This document shows positions 1,981 through 24,905 of a stretch of 24,905 bases of DNA, in pieces. This stretch comes from a virus (Duplodnaviria > Caudoviricetes). The stretch covers positions 1-24,905 of the IMG/VR virus record IMGVR_UViG_3300006802_000519. The stretch is one strand, 5' to 3'. The translations under genes were made by a program, and so were the position numbers. The notes under the pieces are model-generated. The model was not told where the DNA came from. It worked only from the letters and a program-made list of their open reading frames with translations, and did not search any database. Each line of letters starts with the position of its first letter. Within the stretch, counting starts at the first letter, position 1.

Positions 1981-2066
1981 GCCCCGGTGGTGGAAGCTGG
2001 TAGACACAACGAGTTTAAGCCTCGTTGCCGAAAGGCGTGCAGGATCGTGGCCTGTCCGGGGTACCA
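1981..2066 (+). tRNA. trnL: tRNA-Leu(UAA), long variable arm, encoded CCA
   Basis: Acceptor GCCCCGG/CCGGGGT + ACCA. Anticodon arm ACGAG-TT[TAA]GC-CTCGT. Variable arm GCC-GAAA-GGC. T arm GCAGG-ATCGTGG-CCTGT. Confidence 0.9.
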
Positions 2067-2138
2067 CGGGGATTAGCTCAGAGGAAGAGCGCTGTCTTTG
2101 GGAGGCAGCTGCCGCAGGTTCGACCCCTGCATCCCCGA
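2067..2138 (+). tRNA. trnP: tRNA-Pro(UGG), no encoded CCA
   Basis: Acceptor CGGGGAT/ATCCCCG + A73 (C1:G72 Pro identity). D arm GCTC/GAGC. Anticodon arm CTGTC-TT[TGG]GA-GGCAG. T arm GCAGG-TTCGACC-CCTGC. Confidence 0.93.
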
Positions 2139-2139
2139 C

Positions 2140-16729: not shown

Positions 16730-17873
16730 CAATATTGTTATCCCAGTGACAGTTTAATCACTGGCTCTTGCGGTTTTCCATCCCGCAAGTTCAGACTATA
16801 TCATGATCTAGTCACGCCAACGAAAATCAAGTGCATTTACCTGACGGTCTACTGTTCTTCAGTAAAGAGGAAATAGAACATCTTACTGACAATTGGTCAG
16901 ATCTAGAAATTGCCAAAAAGTTTGACATTTCTTACGCGACAGTCAGAAAAGCACGAATAACACACAATGTAAAAACTTTCACCCAAAAAACCGGACTTGT
17001 TCGAATTGCAGAGACAGGAGAACTGCGAAAAAAAGGCAGCGTCAGAGGCGTCATTAGACAAGACAACCTAGACGTAACCTATTTCTCTGCTATTGATACT
17101 CCGAAAAAAGCATACTGGTTGGGAATGCTTCTTGCAGACGGTTGGTCTACTCTGCGAAATGGTGTGCCCAAAGAGGTGGGATTGGCTTGTTCACCAAAAG
17201 ACATTCATATTCTTCAGGAATTTCAAAAAGAAATTAACCACAAAGGCAGAATTGTCATCAAGACAAACAAAAGTTCCCTCAAAAAAGACAACATTTCACA
17301 AATAGCTACAATCAGGATTACGTGCCAAGAATTTACACGACTGGCGATTGAGGCTGGAGTTACACCCAAAAAGTCAGGGAAACTTTACATTCCCCGCTCC
17401 GTTCACGATTTCCCAGCAGAATTTTGCCGTGGATTTTTTGACGGAGACGGCTCGATCAGTGAAAAGAATTTTACATTTATTTGCGGGTCGGCAGGATTTC
17501 AAAAAGAACTACAAACATTTATTCAAACATATACGGGTGTAAATTTGTACCCAGCAGCTTTGATTAGCCCGACAACTGGAAAACCGGTTGAGAGACTAAG
17601 TGGATACAAAAAAGATCGTGGCGTTTTGGAATGGATGTATGTAGATCCTGATCCGTGTTTGGAACGCAAATACAAAAAATTCGTTGGTTCTTGGTGCTAG
17701 ATCCCCGGCGCTCGTGGGAGTATTACTGTCCGTTCTGGACTCGACTCCTAGTCGTTGCACCTTCTAAAAAATTCCTTTTTTAGCTTGGCTCAGGATTCCC
17801 CGTAGATGGAGGGGTTCCCTGAATTCACCGGGTTATTGCCTGCTTATCACTAAGCAGCGGCGCAATTGTGTTT
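16730..17873 (-). mobile_element. Group I intron (1144 nt) in the major capsid gene
   Basis: 5' exon ends in U (TGGCGT) pairing with GCGCC (P1, U-G wobble). P2 CTGCTTA/TAAGCAG. P3 CCCGGTG/CGCCGGG. P4-P5 TCAGGGAACCCC...GGGGAATCCTGA. P7 GACTA/TAGTC. P8 GATCTAG/CTAGATC. P9 CTTGCGG/CCGCAAG and CCAGTGA/TCACTGG. Terminal G at 16730. Confidence 0.93.
16831..17700 (+). CDS. LAGLIDADG homing endonuclease (two motifs, N-terminal HTH), antisense in intron loop L8
   Basis: AYWLGMLLADGW and FCRGFFDGDGSI; SDLEIAKKFDISYATVRK HTH; C-terminal CLERKY. AT-rich. Confidence 0.9.
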   Translation: MHLPDGLLFFSKEEIEHLTDNWSDLEIAKKFDISYATVRKARITHNVKTFTQKTGLVRIAETGELRKKGSVRGVIRQDNLDVTYFSAIDTPKKAYWLGMLLADGWSTLRNGVPKEVGLACSPKDIHILQEFQKEINHKGRIVIKTNKSSLKKDNISQIATIRITCQEFTRLAIEAGVTPKKSGKLYIPRSVHDFPAEFCRGFFDGDGSISEKNFTFICGSAGFQKELQTFIQTYTGVNLYPAALISPTTGKPVERLSGYKKDRGVLEWMYVDPDPCLERKYKKFVGSWC

Positions 17874-24273: not shown

Positions 24274-24905
24274 ACTTGTCTGGCGGCCGTCTGGGCTTGC
24301 TCATAATCTCTGTTCTCTTTATAGCGCCGGAACATCTCCTGTTGCAAGTCGGTTAACCGTTGTTGCGTACCAGTTGTTTCAATTCCCTTGCGGCTCTCTT
24401 CTCCTGTTGTACGAATAAGTCCGGTTTCGCCAGCATACCGTTGTGCTTGAGTAAGACGTTGCTGTTCACCAGTCGTTGCAATAGACTTGCGCTCTTGTTC
24501 TCCACTGGCCACAATATTCGCTCTGCTTTGCACACCTTGCTCGGCAATATTGAATCGTTCTTCTTTGCCGGTTGCTCTTGCTACGTCAAGAGTCCTAGAG
24601 AGATTCGAATCATTGAGGCGTTCTTCTAAGTCTGCAGCAAACGTCAGATTGCGTTGATTCGTCTCAATTGCTAAATCATTAATCGCCATCATGGTTTGAA
24701 GAGTTTGCGTGGCTCGCCTCAGTACCCTTACTCCCGCTCCTCCCTTGCCTCTATTACTCGAACCGCCAGCCATCCGAGATGAAGCACCTCCAGAAGACCT
24801 GCTGCCTCCGGAAGACCTGCTGCCTCCGGAAGACCTGCTGCCTCCGGAAGACCTGCTGCCTCCGGAAGACCTGCTGCCTCCGGAAGACCTGCTGCCTCCA
24901 GAAGA
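24270..24905 (-). CDS. Repeat-rich putative internal virion protein (5'-truncated)
   Basis: The frame of ORF 24270..24773 stays open to the window edge through (SSGGSR)n. 11-residue xxGEQxRxxxx repeats near the C-terminus. Confidence 0.7.
   Translation of the reverse strand, partial: SSGGSRSSGGSRSSGGSRSSGGSRSSGGSRSSGGSRSSGGASSRMAGGSSNRGKGGAGVRVLRRATQTLQTMMAINDLAIETNQRNLTFAADLEERLNDSNLSRTLDVARATGKEERFNIAEQGVQSRANIVASGEQERKSIATTGEQQRLTQAQRYAGETGLIRTTGEESRKGIETTGTQQRLTDLQQEMFRRYKENRDYEQAQTAARQV
24789..24905. repeat. 18-bp tandem repeat, about 6.5 copies, cut by the window edge
   Basis: Unit tcc(a/g)gaagacctgctgcc. Encodes SSGGSR on the minus strand. Confidence 0.97.

Follow-up and report, generated by a model that had tools for sequence, protein, structure and literature searches.

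A capsid gene split by an intron, with an endonuclease gene inside that intron and on the opposite strand, raises the question of what the endonuclease gene does there: does it spread the intron, does it control the capsid gene, or does it serve something else? We studied such a locus in a window of 24,905 nt (the whole stretch of DNA analysed, IMG/VR record IMGVR_UViG_3300006802_000519), the source fragment of which (G000) is estimated to be 29% complete. The anatomy of the intron, its junction, the ORF within it and the pattern in its relatives were observed directly. On this basis we consider it about 85% probable that the capsid gene harbours an intron predicted to self-splice, with an opposite-strand LAGLIDADG gene in L8 whose product likely cuts intron-free alleles and so spreads the intron by homing. 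The feature is real and well supported; by every trait that could be tested, it belongs to the mobile group I introns in which a LAGLIDADG homing gene is found, and the layout has already been published.

The window represents part of a phage and has its head module on the minus strand, with genes for a terminase (phrog_38), a structural protein (phrog_20475) and a head protein (phrog_1357). An intronless homologue of the split gene (L002) matched phrog_1357, the major head protein, with an E-value of 1.4e-17, and exon 2 of the window itself matched it at 8e-13. Against TIGR04387 the capsid protein reached only 21 bits (cut-off 60). A structure model of the capsid homologue, of low confidence (pLDDT 54), gave no match at E ≤ 0.001, although the ten top-ranked entries below this level were phage capsids throughout. 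The split gene is thus predicted to encode the major capsid (HK97-type head) protein, in agreement with the first-pass annotation. Among 50,697 phage records, S-EIV1 (KJ410740.1) was the only match, with one matching place in its whole genome. Exon 2 showed 59.7% identity to S-EIV1. The S-EIV1 capsid gene lacks the intron, unlike that of the window, and its protein is 69.9% identical to the window's over residues 1-380 and collinear at the junction WR|DR. The phage, which is uncultured, is likely S-EIV1-like, with a cyanobacterial host. In the S-EIV1 record the capsid frame (L390, 2569-3699 of KJ410740.1) is intact, but it is not annotated as one gene; the record has a hypothetical gene on the opposite strand there, together with a partial gene for the C-terminus. 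Elsewhere in the window, adjoining genes for tRNA-Leu(TAA) and tRNA-Pro(TGG) are located at 1981-2139 (+), opposite to the gene block and beside an HNH ORF (1500-2009). An 18-nt tandem repeat of 6.6 copies (24787-24905) ends at the window edge; an Rfam IRES_Bag1 match was rejected, as it is really an 18-nt tandem repeat.

The capsid gene lies on the minus strand, with exon 1 at 18305-17874 (144 codons), the 1,144-nt intron at 17873-16730 and exon 2 at 16729-16019 (236 codons and the stop). Exon 1 ends with an Arg codon, CGU, the last base of which takes part in the U-G pair of P1, and the last base of the intron is a G. Excision of 16730-17873 yields a single frame of 380 aa, in which WR|DR is formed between codons 144 and 145. 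Near the intron ends we found 21 frame-restoring U/G pairs, and only the pair 17873/16730 gave the sequence of the relatives. Collinearity of homologous capsid proteins across WR|DR, which the first-pass annotation had named as a check, was found in S-EIV1 and in 80/80 related capsid loci. These loci were fetched with exon 2, are the best 80 of 596 confirmed (chosen by exon 2, with 83-94% identity to it, and not selected for introns) and are all uninterrupted at this point. When the unspliced RNA is read, seven intron codons are followed by three consecutive in-frame stops (17852-17844) within P2. Since the unspliced RNA would give a product of 151 aa only, capsid protein production needs splicing, as had been proposed. 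A TTG at 16732 can open exon 2 separately.

A second IMG/VR contig is identical to the window at 99.99% across 6,867 nt, intron included, and a contig from run X11 spans exon 2 (16592) to the intron (17078) with two differences; the intron is therefore not an assembly artefact. Public RNA was represented by 14 runs, of which seven were compared as contigs, a type of data that carries no strand, start or level. One contig of RNA run X3 joins 17874 to 16729 exactly, with no differences over 69 nt of exon 1 and 50 over 744 nt of exon 2. It supports the boundary and could be spliced RNA or, given the exon 2 differences, an intronless relative. The missing cover of the endonuclease ORF in X3 was disregarded as meaningless in contig data. 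Together, we confirmed that the capsid gene is split by a group I intron, for which self-splicing is predicted.

RF00028, the sole covariance model scored, matched 17883-16767 (-) with an E-value of 3.2e-9 and 46.9 bits, below its gathering score of 50 bits. All helices from P1 to P9.1 could be placed on the minus strand, in line with the P1-P9 core described earlier for 16730-17873. P1 (17878-17859) pairs exon bases 17878-17874 with intron bases 17863-17859 and is supported by folding and invariant among the six same-site introns compared below; the P2 hairpin (17857-17840) contains the three stops. The 5′ half of the core (17832-17704) comprises P3 (17832-17827 with 17709-17704), P4 (17823-17818 with 17794-17789), P5, P6/P6a, the 5′ strand of P7 (17753-17749) and P7.1 with P7.1a (17748-17717). 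The 5′ arm of P8 (17703-17697) is followed, after the large insert in L8, by a segment (16811-16794) with the P8 3′ arm (16811-16805), J8/7 and the P7 3′ strand (16798-16794). P9 (16789-16767) and P9.1 (16764-16743) complete the structure, with a fold z-score of -4.12. A group I core with the P3-P7-P8 pseudoknot, the P4-P6 domain and the P/Q/R/S elements is thus recognisable. Presumably P7.1/P7.1a are reminiscent of subgroup IA and the P/Q elements of cyanobacterial tRNA-Leu introns.

Six introns at the same site were compared, namely that of the window and those of L083, L262, L249, L243 and L256 (L258 is identical to L249), the last five of which were located by pattern scans and an endonuclease-profile scan. 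In the hand-drawn 5′ structure, 97.8% of 276 cells were paired and 18 of 47 pairs had changed on both sides. Slid controls gave at most 50.7% paired and at most five both-side changes, and 0/500 shuffles reached the observed values; these controls are lenient, because the drawing was based on the window sequence itself and the introns compared are related to each other. P9/P9.1 was paired at 96.4%, with both-side changes in 9/14 pairs, and in P2 such changes affected 5/7 pairs. Overall, compensatory changes were located in P2, P3, P6a, P7.1, P9 and P9.1. Furthermore, P7 was fully paired in five of the six introns (one mismatch in L256), whereas P8 with at least seven pairs and the P1 U-G at the 5′ splice site were present in 6/6. 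By eye, P10 (guide-3′ exon) has about three consecutive pairs in the window versus five to six in L249 and L083.

The ORF fills L8 on the plus strand (16831-17700) and is positioned between the two arms of P8, as the first-pass annotation had described. It encodes 289 aa from a GTG start, the position of which agrees with the start of most homologues in the alignment. Its TAG (17698-17700) corresponds to three bases of the P8 5′ arm, read as their reverse complement. This overlap was considered as a sign of co-adaptation and rejected, as the ORF-less intron of L256 has the same P8 bases. The ORF matched PF14528 (LAGLIDADG_3) with an E-value of 2.4e-6 and 28.1 bits (cut-off 22.5) and phrog_4645 with 2.1e-31. 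An N-terminal helix-turn-helix-like region is followed by two LAGLIDADG motifs (residues 96-104 and 198-207); of the motif aspartates, D103 is invariant in 25/25 sequences and D206 is present in the window ORF. The structure model (pLDDT 90.8) gave monomeric LAGLIDADG enzymes and maturases as best PDB folds (best E-value 4.8e-9), including bI3, I-AniI, I-SceI and I-DmoI. The ORF is therefore predicted to be an intact two-motif LAGLIDADG protein, probably with cleavage activity. In total, 30 homologues were found, 22 of them at 48-93% identity. A 58%-identical endonuclease (P0011) is located on a 2.5-Mb contig of Prochlorococcus sp. MIT 1306.

As an antisense ORF, the endonuclease gene must have its own opposite-strand transcript, in line with an earlier statement on this locus, and selection on its relatives points to a product that is made. 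The ORF does not avoid codons that are stops when read on the capsid strand, as it contains 1 TTA, 5 CTA and 4 TCA. Between the antisense ORFs of L083 and L262, dN was 0.084 and dS 0.879, and between those of L084 and L247 the values were 0.175 and 2.93. Three comparisons with the window ORF were saturated at silent sites, so that selection was measured on relatives only. The large excess of silent over replacement changes in these relatives suggests that the antisense genes are expressed.

A candidate sigma70-type promoter for the endonuclease (TTTCCA-18 nt-TATCAT; 16775-16804, +), 26 nt before the start codon, consists of the P9 loop and J8/7 read backwards. Another candidate start signal, TAGACT, is present in four copies in the window, none of them within the intron. 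The promoter scan of the region gave two sites versus 3.0 expected by chance. A similar hexamer pair occupies this position in almost every one of the 37 introns that were resolved, including those with sense ORFs or without an ORF, with a mean of 9.29 matches of 12 for antisense (n=7), 8.75 for sense (n=12) and 8.06 for ORF-less introns (n=18). A TTG at the -35-like site in 5/7 antisense versus 5/30 other introns (p 0.009) was not trusted, because the seven come from three sites, the window has TTT and the ORF-less L243 has TTG. In L016, the antisense ATG follows the -10-like hexamer by 7 nt, as for a leaderless start. The antisense ORFs in the codon-139 intron of L084 (2965-3813) and L247 (2725-3573) have no ATG past the -10-like hexamer, and their frames are open into exon 2. 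By eye, a clear ribosome-binding site is missing from most of 30 listed gene starts, and the lack of one in front of the ORF therefore does not speak against expression.

We tentatively propose, while holding the opposite to be the better bet, that conserved parts of the ribozyme form a ready-made backward promoter, with a -35-like hexamer in the P9 loop and a -10-like one in J8/7, 18 nt apart and aimed into L8. The spacing of the hexamers would then be held by the P7 and P9 helices, and any gene entering L8 in reverse orientation would be transcribed immediately. The persistence of one LAGLIDADG_3 lineage in this loop and on the antisense strand, in several capsid introns, would thereby be accounted for. 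Moreover, a catalytic RNA core would double as a promoter, the transcript of which competes with splicing of the capsid gene.

The comparison with related capsid genes places the window's intron in a hotspot. Among 111 capsid-gene-bearing sequences (the fetched loci and the window, several from the same contig), introns were found at 17 or more site/phase positions between codons 21 and 242, although errors in junction placement may account for part of the spread among adjacent positions (35-37 and 85-88). This count leaves out a site near codons 3-4, for which few junctions could be placed. At this capsid start, a group I core was seen in 10/80 loci (L005, L008, L011, L012, L015, L037, L040, L055, L066 and L069). 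One capsid gene, in L243 (1571-3793), contains six group I introns, all ORF-less, and another, in L083 (630-3913), contains five, two of which have endonucleases, on opposite strands. In the 80 unselected loci, an intron core was present anywhere in the capsid gene in 14 and at codon 144 in none. Five other distinct sequences have an intron at the window's site; it contains an antisense ORF in three of them (L083, L262 and L249, 59-62% identity) and no ORF in the other two (L243 and L256). Automated gene calling will break up or overlook the capsid gene of S-EIV1-like phages, an abundant aquatic group, and the gene offers a natural test set for why some phage genes gather introns.

Strand, loop and endonuclease family co-occurred without exception in 20 classified ORFs. 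All seven antisense ORFs (sites 30, 139 and 144) belong to PF14528 and lie in L8, whereas 13/13 sense ORFs tested belong to PF03161 (LAGLIDADG_2), and the 12 of these with resolved junctions are all placed after the P7 5′ strand and before the P3 3′ strand. For these counts, we had removed identical copies, repeated rows of one contig or phage, and five rows for which the junctions were not resolved. The two groups gave no mutual BLAST match at 1e-3. In 165 loci with more distant relatives of the ORF, 10 were antisense in an intron, 26 were sense and 129 had no intron found with our profiles, which derive from six cyanophage introns and overlook divergent ones. A tree was made for 160 of these proteins, in which eight antisense capsid-intron ORFs fall in a clade of nine tips (support 0.82) with sense ORFs next outside, which makes the antisense orientation a trait of one lineage and not of LAGLIDADG_3 overall. 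It seems to have been inherited within a single endonuclease lineage that has spread to several capsid introns, and does not look like a device to regulate capsid output. Distant endonuclease relatives outside the window protein's clade are antisense to an intron core in other phages (L085, L089 and L159). A closely related intron core with an insert of about 780 nt is located in a non-capsid gene (L248, 1153-2088).

Codon 144, the last of exon 1, is CGT in 6/6 intron alleles versus 18/80 intron-free ones (p 0.0003, for sequences that are not independent). We infer that this bias fits the U-G requirement of P1 and co-conversion of the flank. The nearest fetched intron-free alleles have a DNA identity of about 82%, and are therefore too far to date the transfer or to show recent homing. 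In the course of events that we propose, ribosomes on the unspliced RNA would halt after seven codons in P2, so that the core could fold unhindered, and splicing would restore the capsid frame. The endonuclease would come from a separate transcript of the opposite strand, the most likely start of which is near 16811, just behind the sigma70-like signal. In a mixed infection, the enzyme would cut the intron-free site, and repair would copy the intron together with the flanking CGU codon that it needs.

The strongest competitor, which we regard as unlikely, is an intron that splices and contains an ORF that does not home to its own site, being silent, a maturase or a cutter of another site or of competing phages. 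The top folds of the model include maturases (bI3 and the bifunctional entry 1p8k), the weak P10 could call for a helper, and the promoter is an unproven candidate. However, a dN/dS near 0.1 in the family and intact motifs speak against a silent gene, and the ORF-less introns L243 and L256 at the same site against an obligate maturase. Moreover, the ORF subfamilies follow the insertion site in the tree, as expected of site-specific enzymes. Homing to the capsid site remains our preferred function for the ORF.

Somewhat less likely again, we think, is that the opposite-strand transcript is itself the regulator, pairing with P8, L8 and, if it extends further, the P3-P7 core, or colliding with capsid transcription, and so timing or throttling the capsid. 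The antisense transcript must overlap P8, a scan found no plus-strand terminator-like site between the ORF stop and 18171, and antisense interference has been raised for nuclear introns (PMC9548176). On the other hand, other capsid introns carry sense ORFs. In addition, 80/80 relatives are intron-free at the site and two same-site introns are ORF-less, so capsid control cannot depend on an antisense transcript. The S-EIV1-like capsid genes also lend themselves to studying how a homing gene on the antisense strand can be expressed in a phage without blocking splicing. That the insert stays unspliced, leaving a capsid in two pieces, a dead allele or a mis-assembly, is very improbable: exon 2 can be opened at the TTG and the low estimated completeness of G000 would allow a second capsid gene, but the full covarying core, the near-identical second contig, the intron at the same site in five other distinct sequences and the single matching place in the S-EIV1 genome all argue against it.

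In a study of introns in T7-like phages, the endonuclease is reportedly antisense as well. The rarity of the layout, which the first-pass annotation had implied, did not hold up. In the mycobacteriophage LittleE, the major capsid gene (gene 13) harbours a probable group I intron with a bottom-strand LAGLIDADG-like ORF (gene 14), and splicing was demonstrated by RT-PCR and protein sequencing (PMC3706429, Pope et al. 2013). As in the window, the exon ends with U, the intron ends with G and the endonuclease ORF is on the opposite strand of a capsid-gene intron. The LittleE intron is about 819 nt long, versus 1,144 nt in the window, and its host is actinobacterial, versus likely cyanobacterial. 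Gene 14 is called HNH in the figure legend and LAGLIDADG-like in the text of PMC3706429, and we liken it to the window ORF by description only. The same paper mentions, in passing, a capsid-gene group I intron in the lactococcal phage Tuc2009 and a psbA group I intron in the cyanophage S-PM2, which resemble the window in the interrupted gene and in being from a cyanophage, respectively. Antisense homing genes are also described for the nuclear rDNA introns Dsq.L2066 and Dir.S956-2 (PMC9548176), together with a separate promoter and the problem of antisense interference. There too the homing gene is opposite to the ribozyme strand but, unlike in the window, the introns are in eukaryotic rDNA and the enzymes are of the His-Cys box type, expressed by RNA polymerase II.

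Other components have precedents as well. Bastillevirinae phages contain up to two or three group I introns per gene and one LAGLIDADG_2 ORF (PMC11878797). Unlike in the window, these introns are in DNA polymerase, terminase and nucleotide-metabolism genes and mostly have HNH ORFs; the word 'capsid' does not occur in that paper. Phage group I introns are said to prefer DNA-metabolism genes (PMC12350094), and bacterial group I introns have been described as having an in-frame stop inside them (PMC3984707). Since each component has a precedent, the single locus is unsurprising and the family view adds value; set against LittleE, the window's capsid gene is a multi-site intron hotspot. In passages of PMC3428280, PMC1995217, PMC8557907 and bioRxiv 10.1101/325100, nothing on the window's intron was found, and the word 'intron' is absent from the last. 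We found no publication on capsid introns of S-EIV1-like phages in a search that covered mainly open literature. In the cyanophage Pf-WMP3, an intron has a working endonuclease, I-PfoP3I (PMC3428280), and in T4 a free-standing antisense gene, segD, is found beside the capsid gene (PMC2988022).
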